Shown: piece by piece, positions 1 through 34,381 of the stretch | How positions within the stretch are numbered: position 1 is the first letter of the stretch | Layout: each line of letters starts with the position of its first letter | Source: Podarcis cretensis | Lineage: Eukaryota | Assembly: GCA_951804945.1 (NCBI GenBank) | Contig: OX638164.1 | Location: 5,952,001-6,016,000 of the forward strand | Direction of reading: 5' to 3' | Length of the DNA stretch: 64,000 nucleotides | The notes under the pieces: model-generated | Told to the model about the DNA's origin: nothing | Seen by the model: the letters and a program-made list of their open reading frames with translations, nothing else | The model's database searches: none | Program-made: the position numbers and the translations under genes

Positions 1-2477
1 CTAAGGTGGATGTCAGGCAGGCAGCTGTGGCCAAGGCCTTGCTAAATCTAAGATGGATCCCAGATGGGTCAGGCCAAAGGCCTATCTAAGTCTACATCCT
101 GCTCTCTCAGTGGCCAAACAGATGCCCCAAAGGGAAGGCTGCAAGCACGAATTGAGCACAACAGCATCCCACCTGCTATTCCCAGAAGCTGGTATTGGTA
201 TTCAAAACTGCTATTCAGAAGCACATTGCGTCCGACAGTAGAACACGGCCATTGTGGCTAAAAGCTTTATTCTCTTGTGTATTTGCCCAATTCCTTTTTA
301 GAGTCATCCAAGCCGGGAGCCACCACTGCCTCTTGTGGAAGTGAGTTCCATAGTGTAACTATGTGAAGAAGGACTTTCTTTTGGCTGCCTGAGTCGCCCA
401 GCCTTCCCTGGATGGCCCCATGACACAAACCTCTGCTCCCTAGGCACTTTCCCCACCCAATTCGTAATCTTAAACGCCTCTGTCACATTCCCCTACGGGG
501 CGAAGACACAGTAAAGGCTGGTTTCTCAAGAAGCAAAGATATCAGTGAAATTCCCAGAGAGAGACTGGGAACCAGAAGCTGCAACCAGAATCCACAGGGC
601 TGGTGTGGTGGATCCCCCAACTGTGACAGCAAAGCAGAGGGGATAGAAGGGGTTAACTTAACTCGACGAAGTGTGTAATTAAAACATTAACCATCTGCTA
701 AGGTCCATCTGGCTTTCATTTCCTTACAACTGGCACACAAAAAGGGGGAGGGGCTTTTTTTTTTTTTTTAATTTGCTGAGCGCACTTCTGAAGTTCCTAG
801 GCCATGCGGAGTCGAGGCCTCGCCTCGCTTTCAAGCTTCTCCACGCATACAAACGCTCACAGTCCTCCATTAAAATGATCTCCTGTGGGCATGAACACAA
901 GCCTGCAATATTACTCTGAGAACCCCAGGAGGAAGATAATCTACAAAACCTATTGTGAGGGAAGGGCGGAGGGCGGCGGGTATGGGAAATCAAGCGTATC
1001 CCGAGGCTTTTCCTCCTCCACTTTGAAAATTCACAGCACCGACTAGGCCTCACATTTGCACAACAGCAGCAGCCCAAGGAGAGCATGGCAATCCTGTGTC
1101 CAGGCCGAGGGCCACATTCTCTTGTGGGGGAACACTGCAGGGGCCGCATACTATTGCTGGTCTGGGCAGGAGGCAAAAAAAAGAAAAAGAGTGCAGCAAG
1201 ATATTTAATTCATTCCATTTCTTTGAAATCTCTTCCCGCAAACTGTCTCTCAATTTTGTGATAAAGATATGGCTCTTACCACAGCAAGCTACATTCCAGT
1301 TATGCAAACGTCAAAGGTTTCCATTGCTTGCCATGCAAAAGTCACCCACCGCTGCCACCAATCTCTCCAGCAGGGAAATGAGAGGCATTAATGCACGCCA
1401 AAGACACATTTCTGCCAGGAAAAGCACCCAAGGAGGGTGCAGGGACAGGCTGGGGAGGGAATGTAGCCCGAGGAAAGTCCCAAAGGCCAGACAGAGGCAC
1501 CTGAAGGGCCATATCCGGTCCCTAGGCCTGAATTTCCCCACCCCTTTTGTAATGGTGTATGTAGGATAGCAAGTGCCGTGCCAGATTAGAAGTGGGGACA
1601 GTCGGCTTCAAATCCCCACTCAACCCTGAAGCCCACTGGGCGTCTTTCATCCGCTCAGCCTAAACTACCTCACAGGGTTGCTGTGCAGACAAAACAGGCT
1701 AGCAACCACTTTGTGAGGCTGGTAAATGGAATCAAAACAACATCCCCAATGGTGTAACTGGAAGCGCCCCTGTGAACATTTACTGCTGGGTTGCCGAGGC
1801 ATGTCTCTGTGGTGTACAGAAATGGAGATGGAGCGGGGAGGGCTGTGCGGCTCAGTGGGTGGAGCATCTGCTTTGCATGCAGAAGGTCCCAGGGTGAATC
1901 CCTGACATCTCCTGGCAGGGTTGGGGGTGTGGGGAATCTTATTACAGAAGGATACAAGTAAACAAACCTAACGAGTTTATACGGGAAAGGGTGTGTTTTC
2001 CTTGATGTACTGGAATAGTAAATACCAAGATCCATGCAACAAATTGCTTTTGGTTTAAAGCAAGCTTTTTTTGTTTTGTTGGCTGTTGTCGGCATCCGTC
2101 TGTCTCGAGAGGCAATGGAGTGTGCCTCCGGGGGTAAAGCCAAACTGCGACATTAGCAGCACTGGAGCAACCTCCCTGGGGCACAAGACTTAACTTTGAA
2201 ATACCGTAAATCCTATCGTGTGCCTTCACAGCAGTCAAAGTGATTGGAGGAGGAACTTGGCAAAAAGAGCCAACTATTGGGAAGTGAGACCGTGTCTGGA
2301 TCAGAGGAGTTATTTGAGGTCAAAGCACACTTCCTTGCTCCAGGAGCTACTGAGGTAGGTGTATCTAAGAGGGCAGCCAGCACTGGGCGCCAGCCAAGAG
2401 CCTGGAGCATTATTGACAACCTAACAGTTTTGAGGATAGTGGATAGAGACACACAGGGCAGCTTTCCACCCTCAAAT

Positions 2478-4141
2478 AGACTTCCGGGTTGACGCCATCG
2501 CCGAATGGCGGACTCCCTCCGAGCTCCGGAGGGAGCCTGCTCGGCAGGGGCTGGGTCCTACCGCATCGGTGACGCGGGGACCCTCAAAAACCATGGGCGC
2601 TGAAACCCATGGACATGGTGACTCGGCTGGCACTTTTTGCGCCCCCCCCCGACCCGCGAAGGAGCCTTTTTAAAGGCTGCGGAGCGGGTGACAGGGGGGG
2701 GTGGTGCTTTGAGTCCTTCGCTTCCCCTGCCGAGCGAAGCCGCATGCCATTCGACGGAGAGCGCTGACTTCTTCTATTGAAAATTTGGACTTAAAAGAAT
2801 AACCCGTGAGTAATCGGAACCTGGACTAAAAAGGGGGATAAATTTGTTAAAAATTCGGAGCGAGCGGGGGGGGGGCGCAAAAAGGAAGTCAGCCCCCCCC
2901 CCCGTTGTAGAAGAGTTAAAGCAAAGGATTTGACAACTAAGATCGAGTGCAACCCTATTTTGACAAAGTTATTAATTTCGCGAGGGAAAATCATAAGACT
3001 GAGCTGGAGGAGAAAGGTGGAATTGAATTAAAAAGCAACCCCCCCCCCGAACCCTGGGAGCGATTTGTGAGAGCGCCGGGAGAAGAGAAATAGAGGTTTT
3101 GACAGCTGTCAAAGAGCTGTCAAAGCGGAAGAATAAAATAGAGATCTTTGTTACGAGGACTTTGCCGGTTACATTTGTTATAAATTGGATACAAATTGTT
3201 ACAAACAAGGAATAACAAGTTATTTTGACTGGTGGACGTGATCTGGAAGGGAATTTAGTTATTGCAATCCACCTAGAGGAGCCGAGGGACATTACAAGTA
3301 TTGTTGGCGTGGAATTTGACCAGAACTTTTTATCTCCTGGGAAACTGCAGAAATGGAACACTATTTTGTCTACAGAGGTCTACGCACTAAAGGAGACAAT
3401 AGATTTATCTATTGAAGAATGAAAAGGACTTGACGTAATGTTTTGTTCTTGAATAACAAGCCTCTGCAGAGGAATTAGAAGCTTTTGGAATTGGAACATT
3501 TGTGCAGGAGAGCAGGGAAAAAGAAAAAAAAAAAAAGGAGGAGTGAGATCAACAAGAACAACAAAAATAATAAGAACTGGACAAAGTTGGAAGTGGGAAC
3601 ATTTGGGACATCCAGATTTGACAGGTTTAAAGGAATAAAATTGGAACTTTCACCCTTAGATATAAAAATCTGGATGGAAGAAATGGGCCTTTTTTGAGAC
3701 AGACTCCTTCCAAGATTGGACATTCGAAACTAAAGATGACTGGGAAAGCACTATGGTTTAGAGACATGTGGGAACTCCAGGAAGATATCAGACGTCGAGG
3801 AACATTGGGAACGCAACCGGGAAAGGGGGGAGGGAAATTTGGAATCCAAAGGGCGTAAAATTATTTTTTTTTAATTTTTCTTCTATTGTAATCTGTATTG
3901 CATATTAAAAGGGGGAACTCGCGGAAGGGAACAGGTCGATTTTAGGGGATGGGAAAATATTTTTAAAATTGAGTCAATGATAATGAGTTTAAATTTGGGA
4001 TAAGAATTTGTTGAAATTTTTTTTGTTTATTTGTAAGAATTGGAATACAGGAGGGGGAGGGGAGGGGAAGTCCTGAAAAGATGTTATTGGGGAAAAGATT
4101 GTATGGAAAATCTTAATAAATATCATTTAAAAAAAAAAAAG
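2478..4141 (+). mobile_element. 1.66 kb non-autonomous L1-like retroelement with 18-bp TSD
   Basis: TSD AGCTTTCCACCCTCAAAT at 2460-2477 and 4142-4159. CpG-rich 5' end (CTTCCGG, AATGGCGG), A-rich body with broken ORFs, AATAAA at 4115-4120 and A12 tail at 4129-4140. Confidence 0.85.
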
Positions 4142-5111
4142 AGCTTTCCACCCTCAAATGGAGTGTGCAGCATTTTTCCAAAGCTGTGAGAGCCTGTTTG
4201 CCACCTGAGCCAACAAGCTTGGCTGCAAGGGGGGCAGGGAATGAGCAGCTGGAGCCCCCCCGCCCCCCACCACATGCGGCTGTGCTAGATTACCCAAGAG
4301 GCAGATTAAGCAACATGCTTAGGGCACCAGAAAGGCAGGGGCACCCAAAAGAAAAATGAGATTTTAAAAAATAAAACGATTTGGCATTTGAGATTTTTTT
4401 TTTTTAAGCATCCAAGTAGTCCATCGGGACTTTGATAAGACTTCATTACATTCCTCTACACACACTTGCCCTACTTTTTTTGTTCTCTTAACCCCACATA
4501 AAACCAGGGATATTAACATAGTTCAAAATAATGCGAGGAAATCAGATCCTGTTATGTATTACAATCAATCTATGGGGTTTTTCTAATAATTATTTTTTTA
4601 TTTTATGGTTTAGTATGGTTTTTGTTGTATTACACATTGGGGGACAATATTTTCAGTGCTCAAAGCCTCTAAAGTGGTGGTTTTCAGCTGGTCCAGACCC
4701 AAGACCCACCTCTGACCCACAACGTGGGACCTGCTTTCACTTTTGTTTTATACTTCAGCAATGCTAACAGTGCCCATTATTAATCCTAAAATGGCGGCTC
4801 ACAGAGCACTATACCTTTGCATTACTAAATGAAATGCAGTTATTTTTACACTTGCTCTTACCCGAAAGAAGCCTTTGAAAAGGAGCGACTTTTGCATCCC
4901 GAGAGAAGTCTGGAAGCCATCGAGATACACAAGGCGGCGAAGAAAGTGCCCCTGTACCATAGGAGCTCTCTCACCAGAGGCATAGATATAGGAAGGCAAT
5001 CCATTCACAGACTAGCACAATCCACCGTCTCTGATGAGGCCTGCACTAGCAAGGTTACGGTGAATGCTGGCCCTCCCAGAACCAGGATACAAAATCCACT
5101 TACAACCACGA

Positions 5112-5320
5112 AAGCCATTGTGGTGTAATGACTGTAGCGTTAAGACGAGGTCCTGGGAGACCAGAGTTCAAATCCCCGCTCAGAAGTGAAGCTCACTGGT
5201 GACCTTGGGCCAATCGCTCACCCTCAGCCTACCCTACCTTGCAGGCCTGCTGAGAGGATAAAATGGAGAGAACGATATTTGCCTTCTTGAACTCCTTGGA
5301 AGGAAGGTGGGATATAAATG
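5112..5320 (+). mobile_element. Older MIR/Squam3-like SINE (similar copies at about 1575-1695, 18960-19137, 20657-20860, 26530-26717, 43248-43480, 45675-45822)
   Basis: GTTCAAATCCCC B box, GTGACCTTGGGC, CAGCCTAnCCTACCT...GAGGATAAAATGG core. Confidence 0.7.
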
Positions 5321-5392
5321 AACCTGAAATGAAACTATGGTTTCCAGGGCTGCAAATCTGGGAGGCCAATTTTTTTCCTCCACTGCATGTTA

Positions 5393-5776
<384 letters not shown>

Positions 5777-30270: not shown

Positions 30271-31570
30271 ATTTAGCTGAATAATGTCTGCACTGGCTAG
30301 CAGCAGTTCTCTACATTCCAGTCCCAGCCTTTTGGAAATGCCAGGGATTGAACCGGACACCTTCTGCAAGCAAAGAATATATCTGCCACAAAGCTACAGC
30401 TCTTCCCTAAAAATTAAGCAAGTTTCCAGTCCTCATGGTTCTGAATAAAGGACTGATTGAAAGCTGAGACAGACCATTGGTCCATCCAGCTCAGTAATGT
30501 TTACGCTGACAGGCAGCAGCTCTTCAGATTTCAGACAGGGTTCTGTCGCAGTCTTATCTAGGAATGCTGTGGACTGAACTGTCTGTATGCAAAGCAGTCC
30601 ATCTATCACTGAGCTACGGCCCTTCTCCTAATAGGACATCAGATCTACCACACACCTGGATAGCTCTTCAGAAAGGTGAGGAAAAATTCCATTTGTAGTT
30701 TGTAATGAGAAGGCATGACACATATTTGAGGATCTTAGAGAAGTTTTTCTTAAGGGTGCACTCTACACATGCCCGGGGGAACTATGTGCAGAGGTCCTTT
30801 TTGAAAAAGATTTGTTTTCGCTTTGAGGAAAGGCACTATGCACAAGTTTAGGAACAGTTTTTCCTCTGTATCCTTAAGAAACTTATTTTTCCTTTATTGA
30901 TGCTTTTAACTTTACCATCTTCAAAATTTAAGCTTGGAGACCTCTTTGATTGTGCTGCAACCCTTGCTTTCGGAAAAGCAAACAAACTACAATCTTTAAA
31001 CCTGCAACCTTATGGAATGTGCTGCAACCTATTAACAACAGGAATTTATTAGTAATAATAATAGTAACAAAGAATAACTTAGTAGTACATATCATTATTA
31101 ATATTAAAGTTGACAACCTTTAAACTGACAACCCTATGGACCATCTTATAATATTTTTTTCTCCCACCCACCCCCCTTTTGATTTTAAAATCTGGACTAA
31201 AAGGGTTGAGGAAAAACCCCTCTTTTTTTTGTTCCAATGTGCTTCCAAACTATACAGAAGAATTTTGTTTTCGTTTTTTTAAGTTAGCATTGCTGTTTTG
31301 TTTCTATTAAGAAAAACGGAACAATTCTGTTCTTTCATTTCTATTGTGAAAAATAAAACAATTGCTATTTTACTTTATTAAGAAAAACACAAGGGTTTTG
31401 TTTCGTTTTCAAAAGTTAAAGATGCATTTCTTTTAATGTTATGGGCGGGGGAGGAATAAAAGAAGTCACTTTGCTATTTTATTTTACTAAAAGAATTGAA
31501 AAAAGTCTTATTAAGCATACTTCTTCTTCTTCTTCTTGTTATTCCTGCAGGCACACTTCCACTGACTCCC

Positions 31571-31721
31571 NNNNNNNNNNNNNNNNNNNNNNNNNNNNNN
31601 NNNNNNNNNNNNNNNNNNNNNNNNNNNNNNNNNNNNNNNNNNNNNNNNNNNNNNNNNNNNNNNNNNNNNNNNNNNNNNNNNNNNNNNNNNNNNNNNNNNN
31701 NNNNNNNNNNNNNNNNNNNNN
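31571..31721. other. Assembly gap (151 N)
   Basis: Run of N at the upstream edge of the APPBP2 CpG island. Confidence 1.
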
Positions 31722-31829
31722 CAGTGAAAAGACCGCAGCCACCGGGTCACACGCCAGAGGAGAGAGAAGCAGCGCGAGACCCGCGGCCTCGGCCTTTCCC
31801 CTCAGGCCCCCTTCTCCCCTTCCTCGCGC

Positions 31830-31898
31830 TCCCTTCCTCCTTTTCCCTCCCTCCTTCCTTCCTTCCTTCCTTCCTTCGTTCCTTCCTTCCCTCCCTCC
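31830..31898. repeat. (CCTT)n polypyrimidine tract upstream of the APPBP2 ATG
   Basis: Read directly. Confidence 0.9.
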
Positions 31899-32229
31899 AA
31901 AGCGGCAGCAGCAGCGGCGACGGCGCCCCCAGCGGCTCCCTCCCGAGCAGGCCTCGCCCCGCCGCCGCGGCCTGAGGCGAAGCAGCTGCCGCCGCCTCAG
32001 CAGAGAAGGCGCTGAATCCCCCGTCGCCTCTCCTGGCTGGGAGGCGGAGCGAGCAGGAGGCCCCGAGCGAAGCAGCAGGCCGGCCCGAGCCCGGGAGCAG
32101 CACCGGCGGGAGGCGGGCGAAGAGGCAGGCGTCGCCGCCGCCGCCGCCGGCCTCCCTCTCTCCCTCTCTCTCTCTCTCCCTCCATCCACCCCTCCTCCGC
32201 CCGCCCGTCCCTCGCTCGGCACAGGCAAG

Positions 32230-32370
32230 ATGGCGGCCGTGGAGCTGGAGTGGGTGCCCGAGACGCTCTACAACACCGCCATCTCGGCCGTGGTCGACAG
32301 CTACGGCCGGGCGCGCCGCAGGGACATCCGCTCCTTGCCCGAGAACATCCAGTTCGACGTCTATTACAAG
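32230..32370 (+). CDS. APPBP2: APPBP2 (PAT1) coding exon 1
   Basis: MAAVELEWVPETLYNTAISAVVDSYGRARRRDIRSLPENIQFDVYYK. Strong Kozak context AAGATGG, donor AAG|GTGGGC, 141 nt. Confidence 0.97.
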
Positions 32371-34381
32371 GTGGGCAAGGCCGGCGCAGCGCCGGGCCGG
32401 GGGGGACGGACCCCGCCGTGGGGCTGAGGGGAGGAAGGGAAGGGGGCACCCCCTGGGTTGTATTTGTGGGGGGGGGTCCACGCAAGGGCGGCAATCAGGA
32501 GCGCCTCTCTTTTCCCCACCCCCCTACCGCTTTCCCAATTTGGGGGGGGGGGAAGGAAGATGGCTGCAGCCCAGCCCATTTTCGCCTCGGCCTTCCTTCT
32601 GCATCCAGCCACCCATTTCCCCAAACGGGAGCTTTTCCTTCTGCCGTCAGAGTGGACCCCCCCCCCCGAGCCATGTCTCCCCCCCTTGCTCCTAAAACTA
32701 TTACTTGCGCCCCCTCCCGCTGTCAGATTTGGAACCCCCATCCTTATTTGTTTTGCTCAGGAAGCGTCCCAACAGTTTCTTTGCCCCGCTCTGTACATTT
32801 CAGAAGGGGGCTCTGCTTGCTACTCGCATTTTATTTGCAACCCACGCCCCAGAAATCTTGTTTTTGCCCATCGCCTCCGCCTGCTCCTTCAAATGGGGTT
32901 TGCACCCCCTTCTGAATGAACAATATTTCAGAATTGGATTTGCTCATGTAAAAAAACAACCACCGCCATCCTCTTTGCTTGTGCTCCCTCACTGTAGAAT
33001 GTGGACCCTCAGAGAATCTATGTCGCTTATTTACCCCACTCCCCGTTATTTGGCTTTTTCTCTCCTTCACTGCAGAGCTTGCCCCGTGTAGAATCGCTTT
33101 TTAGACCCTACCCTGAGTATTTTCACCATTTATTGGAAGAATACTCACCATCATTATAGTACCTCTCCCTGTGATCTTTTTTTTTTTTTGCCCCTTGCAA
33201 CTCCCCCCCCCAAAAAAAACCCTTCTTTGCTGCCTTTTCCAGAATTTTCCTTCTCAAAAAATGACTGCCTCCCATTCCAGTTTTGCACACCCATCCTAGC
33301 AAATGCCCTGACACCCCCCCCAAAAAATTCCTTGATCCTTTCTTTTATTTGCTCTTCTTACCCCGTATGTAAGCACCCATTCTAGAATTTGCCCCCTAGA
33401 AAAAACTAGTATCTCTTTTTGCCCCACACCCCTTTCCTCCAGAACTTGGAAGAGATTTGTGTCTCAGATTTGGGGGGCACTTTCCAACCAGGCCTGTTGG
33501 GGCAGGGTGATGGTAGCAGTTAAGTCTGCATAGGAGCCTAAGATTGCAATCCTGACTCCACTTATCTGGGGGCAAATCCTGTTTAATTCAGCAGGACTTG
33601 CTTCTGAGTAGATATGGTTAGGAGGATTGCACTATAAATGTGTAATTGATATCTCTCTCTCTCACCCTCGACTGCAGAGGATTAACTAGAGTACTGTTTG
33701 GTTGGAGTGGGGTGTCATAATCAGCACTGCTGTGGCTGTGTGTTTCCAGCGTTGGTGTTTTTCTTGAGAGTGTAGAATGCTTTGTAATACAGTGATGTTG
33801 GATTATGCTGTCTTGCCTAGATTCTATTGGGAGCAATAGAGAGATTTGTGTCCCTCACCACACTTCGGTTTGTAGAACTGGGGTGCTGAAGAAAATAAAG
33901 ATTTATTCTCTCTCAAGGTTCTCATGACAGCTGGAGTTCTTAATCAAAAGCACGCTTTTAACATAAAGACTGCATGCTTTTCGTTTTTCCTAAAATCGCC
34001 ATCTCAAGTTAGTTTTATTGCTATTTGTTTTGCCATCCAGTTAAATATTCAAAGTGGTCCTTTGAAAATGTGAACTTTATAGATCAAGGGCAAGTCGAAG
34101 GATGCCTGGTATTTTCCTAGAGTTTGTATTCTATAAGCTGCTCTGGGTTGCGTTTAGAGTCTCCGCTTCCATCATTCTTCGATGTCAATCTTATTGTTTG
34201 TTATAGAGCAAATTGCTCTGTGGTGTTTATCCAGTGTTCTTTAAAAGACAAAGAAAAGTAATACTCATTATGGGTCTATTCTTGATAGTGGAAAAATAGG
34301 TTAAACTTCTACCTGCACGTTTTGGGGTGGTGGGTATACTGGCGTGTGTCCCTGCTTCTTAAGAAGGCAGAAAGAGTAATA

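Follow-up and report, generated by a model that had tools for sequence, protein, structure and literature searches.

A young insertion in a PPM1D intron of the lizard Podarcis cretensis belongs to a dispersed, protein-less family probably derived from LINE-1

The question raised by this locus is what a 1664 bp insert with both ends intact and no working gene might be, and how it came to be copied. The window, i.e., the whole 64,000-nucleotide stretch that was analysed (Podarcis cretensis, GenBank assembly GCA_951804945.1, contig OX638164.1, positions 5,952,001 to 6,016,000, forward strand), holds this insert in an intron of a gene which we take to be PPM1D, from a preliminary description of the same DNA and from short PP2C motifs. 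That description had proposed a non-autonomous family, either HAL1-like or an internally deleted L1 (LINE-1, long interspersed element 1), with a decayed open reading frame (ORF) 1. The insert is indeed part of a multi-copy, young L1 derivative, but it is neither a plain HAL1 nor a recent deletion. We favour, with a probability of about 85%, the reading that an internal deletion in a LINE-1 gave rise to a clade of protein-less retrotransposons, which intact LINE-1s most likely copy in trans with their proteins, and that the insert is one of its young, full-length copies.

The anatomy previously described was found in place. An exact 18-bp target-site duplication (TSD; 2460-2477 and 4142-4159) brackets the 1664 bp, the 5' end carries CTTCCGG (2481-2487), AATGGCGG (2504-2511) and the arms of a 9-bp stem (2513-2521 and 2527-2535), and the 3' end carries AATAAA (4115-4120) and A12 (4129-4140) followed by a single G. 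The 5' end is CpG-rich as claimed, with an observed/expected ratio of 0.88 in 2478-2900 vs. 0.40 in the whole window. The body contains only broken frames, two of which run from stop to stop at 3216-3422 and 3479-3697. None of the 12 frames scanned had a meaningful match to Pfam, and no second copy of the element was found within the window.

Searching the genome with the insert returned 3505 first-look candidates, and all 40 that were scored (the window copy included) cover at least 1626 of the 1664 bases at 93-100% identity, which rules out the single copy that the preliminary description had allowed for. When 30 loci were checked for a TSD of their own, 23 had one of 13-21 bp, three had one of 9-10 bp, and none was found in four; two of the 30 have common flanks and are probably a segmental duplicate. 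Given this pattern, the window TSD is not a matter of chance, and the anticipated family of similar-sized copies with distinct TSDs does exist. It is also young, as had been supposed, since the best-scoring copies, near full length, lie 1.2% from their majority and 2.1% from one another. Twenty additional 5'-end matches were all the short element. The exact 5' 20-mer occurs 656 times in the genome, and its reversed control not once. From the 48 matches to this 20-mer on contig C1, 40 were taken (four others were already in the set, and the last four were left out); all 40 are homologous over 1.4-2.0 kb and 73-96% identical to the window copy, one measuring 3.1 kb owing to a nested copy, and no ORF2 was found inside them.

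The ORF-less clade, as we call these copies, comprises 10 clusters that differ from one another by 5-24% and, where represented by two or more copies, are 1-3% wide, as judged from 34 of the 40 C1 copies plus six close copies (six were dropped because the end was not found or a nested copy was present). The genome has 131 occurrences of a 3' 20-mer characteristic of the window's subfamily; among its 50 matches on C1-C4, 41 retain the 5' end and nine are truncated. The longest ATG frame in the body of 70 ORF-less copies has a median of 42 aa and reaches 100 aa in only one of them; the clade encodes no protein, with room left for micropeptides of <60 aa. Three close copies within 112 kb (L031, L034, and L038; G000:C3, 6.92-7.03 Mb) could go back to local duplication instead of three separate insertion events. 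At the window locus itself, four runs with the same species label from one study (X1-X4) were compared: contigs cross both insert junctions in X1 and X4, and in X2 and X3 contigs end at 2477 and start at 4142, the TSD edges, with no contig joining the flanks seen. The breaks in X2 and X3 would fit a heterozygous empty site and so give a hint of insertion polymorphism.

Both ends of the element are homologous to those of a young autonomous L1 family in the same genome, here called L1-A, as the preliminary description had led us to look for. L1-A was reached through an L1 ORF1 that hosts one family copy; querying with this ORF1 gave at least 150 close copies, 20 of which were fetched. These are 6-kb L1s with top ORF1 copies 95-99% alike and with an unbroken ORF2 frame of 1242-1247 aa in three of the 20 ORF1-selected loci. 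The L1-A 5' motif has 643 exact matches in the genome, counted regardless of autonomy, and the named relatives of the L1-A ORF1 are Podarcis proteins. The element's first 335-450 bases are 69-75% identical to the L1-A 5' untranslated region (UTR), and nhmmer extends the similarity over the first ~610 bases of the window copy (E 1e-64) and to ~725 in copy L042; its last 180-200 bases match the L1-A 3' UTR, more weakly than the 5' end does. Median TSD length is 17 bp in the ORF-less clade (found in 61 of 70), 16 in the ORF-bearing clade introduced below (32 of 40), and 16 in L1-A (15 of 16), and in all three groups the TSD start is A-rich and most often preceded by T. With the same ends, TSD length, and nick context, L1-A is the likely candidate helper of the ORF-less clade. 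With its 5' UTR no more than 69-75% identical to that of L1-A, the young autonomous family sampled, the insert is not a recent deletion of a present-day L1.

Several further features of L1-A and its neighbours were seen. L1-A (L065:1010-1960 and other loci) has a splice-donor-like site ~320 bases into its 5' UTR and a pyrimidine tract with AG just before ORF1, which suggests a 5' UTR intron; the donor-like site is kept in all aligned derivatives. Nesting occurs both ways: a family copy with its own TSD sits in the ORF1 of an L1-A element (L033:4729-7226), L1 3' pieces lie inside family members in L034 and L163, and L081 has one copy within another. Other internally deleted L1s, with ORF1 and both ends of ORF2, are present at L067:1049-4230 and as the second element of L102, and may be one-off products or further families. 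Two Podarcis gene models (P0015 and P0016) join TRIM-like RING/B-box domains to an L1 ORF1p-like region, as a real fusion or an annotation artefact.

The stretch between the two L1 ends can be read through relatives that still carry a frame. A distant 1.85-kb relative with an intact 174-aa ORF was found in a flank, and the profile of the ORF-less family aligns to it over bases 2-1489, through the ORF, with an E of 2.7e-174. The radiation to which this relative belongs is the larger of the two, its 5' 16-mer occurring 1846 times. Among its first 40 matches on C1, 39 fit the protein profile and 25 have a complete ORF of 174-238 aa with a common C-terminal end; no full ORF2 of their own was found in these 40 elements, one of which holds an inserted L1 3' piece. 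The ORF-less clade aligns end to end with these ORF-bearing relatives and has no ORF left. The relatives' ATG aligns to window position 3300, basal ORF-less copies (L090) still have the ATG of that ORF and 55 aa of its beginning, and the sister protein profile matches 31 of 70 copies of the ORF-less clade, the window copy not being among them.

Comparison by hhalign of the sister ORF profile (15 sequences) with a 20-sequence lacertid ORF1p profile gave a probability of 95.3 and an E of 2.2e-8 over three colinear blocks, with a score of 62 vs. a maximum of 22 in 30 block shuffles. The three ordered blocks are presumably the coiled coil, the start of the RRM, and the start of the CTD (C-terminal domain), and one L1 ORF1 relative is labelled L1 RRM. 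On this profile evidence, the sister-clade ORF very probably represents a decayed L1 ORF1p. Shallower sister profiles reached only 5% and 54% probability against ORF1p, BLASTP of one sister protein against the L1-A ORF1 was blank, and Pfam gave nothing useful in the element frames or the sister protein. The Pfam family Transposase_22 had no match anywhere in the genome and was not among the L1-A ORF1 matches; as it is silent even on the L1-A ORF1, Pfam is blind for these ORF1s. The kinship to ORF1p that the preliminary description expected was thus recovered with the sister profile but not in a direct search of the ORF-less copies, where tblastn and hidden Markov models of L1-A ORF1 and ORF2 found nothing, and the link runs through intermediates. 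In public collections, the sister protein had one match in one search and 14 in another, nearly all of them unnamed Logan proteins; the 14 include one Env-like gene model (59 residues matched) and one unrelated long protein. The Env-like model, from Podarcis (P0028), ends in those 59 residues of the sister-clade ORF, and so these elements leak into gene annotation.

In the least-decayed members (L194, L195, and L197), the match to the L1-A model breaks off at 1826-1831 and picks up again at 5513-5515, and a second frame reads the ORF2 C-terminus; ORF1 model positions ~200-242 are deleted in them as well. At this founding junction, the end of ORF1 is joined out of frame to the last 50-60 ORF2 codons, and the last residues of the sister ORF are the out-of-frame reading at that ORF1/ORF2 junction. 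The junction can be traced in 24 of the 24 rows of the element alignment. In another copy, L181, less of the RRM is missing; this copy may represent an earlier stage or have arisen by a deletion of its own. In a 24-element tree, rooted by assumption on a least-decayed member, the ORF-less clade has a support of 100 and is sister, with a support of 97, to an ORF-bearing element deep in the radiation. When mapped onto the window copy, the ORF1 remnant spans 3300-3782 and the ORF2 tail 3783-3912, which makes the two broken frames pieces of a decayed ORF1; the ORF2 tail cannot be detected directly in the window copy and was placed by alignment to intermediates. The features are as follows.

2460-2477, plus strand: left copy of the TSD, 18 bp, an exact match to the right copy.
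2478-2800, plus strand: L1 5' head, CpG-rich and promoter-like, with a predicted multi-stem fold common to autonomous L1 (from an identity of about 70-74% to the L1-A 5' end, the fold, and consensus pairs).
2478-3299, plus strand: the whole L1-derived 5' UTR (from nhmmer against L1-A and the position of the relatives' ATG).
2806-2811, plus strand: putative splice-donor-like GTGAGT, conserved in the family and GTRAGT in L1-A.
3098-3113, plus strand: perfect 16-bp palindrome, invariant in 8/8 subfamily representatives, this form being absent from L1-A.
3300-3782, plus strand: decayed, shortened ORF1 remnant with the start codon lost, frameshifts, and stops, containing both broken frames.
3783-3912, plus strand: decayed remnant of the last L1 ORF2 codons, now untranslated (from alignment to the intermediates L194, L195, L197, and L168).
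3913-4128, plus strand: L1 3' UTR with a G-rich motif and AATAAA (4115-4120).
4129-4141, plus strand: poly(A) tail, A12 then G.
4142-4159, plus strand: right copy of the TSD.
5554-5678, minus strand: third PPM1D-like coding exon of the host gene, followed by the intron that holds the element in antisense orientation.

The 3' UTR of the window's subfamily is without a ~40-bp T-rich tract kept by its closest relatives. The palindrome at 3098-3113, which a half repeat follows, is shared by the ORF-less clade with one or more ORF-bearing relatives and is not in L1-A; it is a possible factor-binding site.

For the 25 complete sister ORFs (the position-ordered set), omega was 0.61 (log-likelihood -7067.2 vs. 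-7094.8 at omega 1), with 1.08 and 0.92 in the shifted frames and 0.16 for the L1-A ORF1. A narrower set of 15 sequences, with a codon-model omega of 0.72 and 0.65 in one shifted frame, is unconvincing alone, and NG86 estimates of the nonsynonymous to synonymous ratio (dN/dS, 0.33-0.69) were discarded because they overstated selection, the codon model giving 0.72 on the same 15 sequences. About 60 stops would be expected on internal branches (8.0 substitutions per codon, 192 codons, and a stop chance of 0.039) and none was fixed, a figure to be read with the rows having been chosen for an open frame and 15 of 40 sister copies not being open. The omega of the position-ordered set argues for some purifying selection on the sister ORF. 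The protein itself is an ORF1p cut at both ends with ~40 RRM residues missing, i.e., half of the RRM, and its AlphaFold model has a mean predicted local distance difference test score (pLDDT) of 41.5, with only the first 68 residues at 50 or above and one N-terminal helix. The C-terminal peptide is conserved, and we considered whether it acts like a 2A peptide or in stalling; its codons hardly vary and it is the out-of-frame reading at the ORF2 junction, so a cause at the nucleotide level fits as well.

The 5' head (2478-2800) folds with a z of -6.6, none of 100 shuffles being as good. The 5' heads of the relatives and of L1-A fold well too, on both strands, and therefore energy alone cannot tell which strand matters. 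Of the 70 pairs in a consensus fold of 15 sequences, among them one mis-cut row, 18 show a change on both sides, a kind of count that related rows inflate. Rfam gave no match to the element at E 0.1. The 5' start motif belongs to the type reported for clade-1 L1s of Anolis in the accessible text of PMC5381506.

A single founding deletion, from about L1 position 1830 to 5510, would have produced a half-L1, the ORF1p of which would then have lost half of its RRM and drifted under weak selection, until one branch dropped the reading frame altogether. From the retained 5' UTR, RNA polymerase II (Pol II) would make a polyadenylated transcript; ORF2p of the helper, probably together with the helper's ORF1p, would load on this RNA, nick T/A-rich DNA, and copy the RNA by target-primed reverse transcription. 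At a length of 1.65 kb, most copies would be completed, so that the promoter would be kept and new copies could themselves be sources; the existence of many subfamilies in parallel would follow from this. As for what lets the RNA compete for helper proteins, our candidate is the folded and conserved 5' head. A bolder version of this account, which we put forward only tentatively and consider rather unlikely as a whole, is that of a lacertid L1-born Pol II parasite lineage, with 5' ends at about 4:1 over the sampled helper L1, that escaped cis-preference without a working ORF1p; the ORF would first have been kept open mainly for translation of the RNA and then dropped, leaving the covarying folded 5' head as the capture signal. 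The L1 clade would then have its first ORF-less bipartite element, and every stage towards it would still be alive in a single genome.

Several points weigh against the favoured reading of an L1-derived clade copied in trans. In a tree of the 5' UTR (first 345 bases, with fewer ORF-bearing types), the two clades stand next to each other instead of one inside the other, and the 24-element tree has an assumed root. No closer parent L1 was found, and L1-A itself is only 69-75% identical in the 5' UTR; other L1 families exist in the genome and were barely sampled, so L1-A stands as a candidate helper. The window copy taken alone showed no protein similarity to L1-A ORF1 or ORF2 or to the relatives' protein. 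Finally, according to the accessible text of PMC11260458, ORF1-only L1 RNA in human cells needs its own RNA-binding ORF1p, which an ORF-less element cannot supply.

The 5'-UTR tree, together with the sampling of L1 families by one ORF1 query only, would also suit an ORF-less clade born of its own deletion from a different, unsampled L1 and resembling the ORF-bearing elements through L1 ancestry. We regard this as unlikely, given that the two are colinear end to end through the ORF and across the same junction, that the basal copy L090 keeps the ATG and 55-aa start of the same ORF, and that the nesting has a support of 97-100. It is also conceivable, if quite improbable, that the system is a three-layer parasite in which the ORF-less clade uses the shortened ORF1 protein of the sister clade as an adaptor, plus L1 ORF2p: the sister elements are abundant, their ORF is under some purifying selection (omega 0.61), and the protein keeps its predicted N-terminal helix. 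The lack of ~40 RRM residues and the disorder modelled beyond residue 68, however, make RNA binding by this protein doubtful, and no observation here points to such a dependence.

Mobilisation by a non-L1 LINE of the lizard (RTE/Bov-B, CR1, or L2) has in its favour that these are abundant in squamates, as far as the accessible literature goes, and we think it very improbable: the element's 3' end is an L1 3' UTR, and TSD length, nick context, and poly(A) tail agree with L1-A, the only LINE compared directly. A one-off deletion product or a processed pseudogene of a host mRNA, which would likewise have a TSD and poly(A), is practically discounted by hundreds of dispersed copies with common subfamily variants and L1 ends. 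Two other identities were set aside. The insert is not a Pol III short interspersed element (SINE), as its head is an L1 5' UTR and Rfam gave no tRNA, 7SL, 5S, or snRNA match (0 at E 0.1), nor is it an autonomous L1, being without intact ORF1 and ORF2.

The nearest known counterpart of the family is HAL1 (half-L1) of mammals, reportedly described by Smit in 1999 and by Bao and Jurka in 2010. HAL1 is a mammalian L1 derivative encoding only ORF1p, per the accessible portions of PMC5753468 and PMC8535693. As far as those portions go, the lizard elements resemble it in having an L1 5' UTR and 3' end, no ORF2, and copies that keep the internal promoter, and they differ in being reptilian and of probably separate origin. 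The window's clade is L1-derived with both L1 ends, has been amplified as a unit with its own TSDs, and retains of ORF2 only the decayed tail of 50-60 codons. It has no ORF and encodes no ORF1p. The sister clade, like HAL1, encodes one ORF1-derived protein, a shortened, divergent ORF1p in 25 of 40 elements, which departs from HAL1 in being cut at both ends, with half of the RRM gone and an omega of 0.61 vs. 0.16 for the L1-A ORF1. The closeness to lacertid L1s points to a local origin.

ORF-absent bipartite LINEs are reported only from the RTE, Ingi, Vingi, and R2 clades in the accessible part of a 2018 survey (PMC5786205), with RIME (Ingi), NARTc (L1Tc), Bov-A, RTESINE1/2, WALLSI3, and Vingi derivatives as examples. 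Going by that part of the survey, the lizard element is like the RIME, NARTc, and Bov-A type in being non-coding, built of LINE 5' and 3' parts, presumably transcribed by Pol II, and presumably moved in trans, and unlike it in coming from the L1 clade, in being longer (1.4-2.0 kb), and in its gradual route via an ORF1-only stage. An internal deletion has brought together the two end parts, 5' and 3', of a single LINE, and no protein is encoded; the insertion signature matches that of L1-A, the putative partner for mobilisation in trans. The Anolis clade-1 L1s share with it the type of 5' start motif and a long conserved 5' UTR but are autonomous, to judge from the accessible text of PMC5381506, in which a word search found no mention of non-autonomous elements or HAL1. 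SVA and LAVA of apes are long non-coding Pol II RNAs with poly(A), moved by L1 in trans with the aid of ORF1p (PMC11260458 and PMC3287187, in part), as is proposed for the lizard element, whereas SVA is a composite of Alu, a variable number tandem repeat, and an endogenous retrovirus, and the lizard element is L1-derived from end to end. No description of an ORF-less or half-L1 family in lizards was found in the accessible literature, the scope of which leaves aside Repbase, Dfam, and supplementary repeat libraries that may hold an unlabelled consensus, and a word search of PMC13700897 found no mention of such a family in lizards. The insert's family is the half-L1 way of life in a new form, and the route from it to a non-coding element can be followed.

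L1 proteins have a preference for their own RNA, a barrier that Pol II passengers of great length must somehow get round. According to the accessible text of PMC11260458, loss of RNA binding by its ORF1p disables an ORF1-only reporter. The lizard elements form a natural series that starts with a half-L1, ends with an ORF-less element, and includes young copies in its late stages; reporter swaps along it could therefore show which part of the RNA replaces ORF1p. An L1-derived ORF-less element also fills a gap in the 2018 list of clades yielding non-coding bipartite elements. Furthermore, numbering at least 2500 and being mostly full-length, CpG-rich, and promoter-like, the inserts supply these lizards with regulatory variation and can be used as presence/absence markers.

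As for the surroundings of the insert, the minus strand carries three PPM1D-like exons (~22.3-22.9 kb, 13.8-14.0 kb, and 5554-5678), and the one after these falls in the adjoining stretch L201; this order puts the element antisense in the third intron, counting coding exons only, in line with the intron 3 first reported. Just upstream of the insert, window 1624-2243 has a high contig depth, marking older common repeats. The first coding exon of another gene lies on the plus strand at ~31.9-32.4 kb (frame 31420-32427), head to head with PPM1D and ~9 kb from it; we take this gene to resemble APPBP2.

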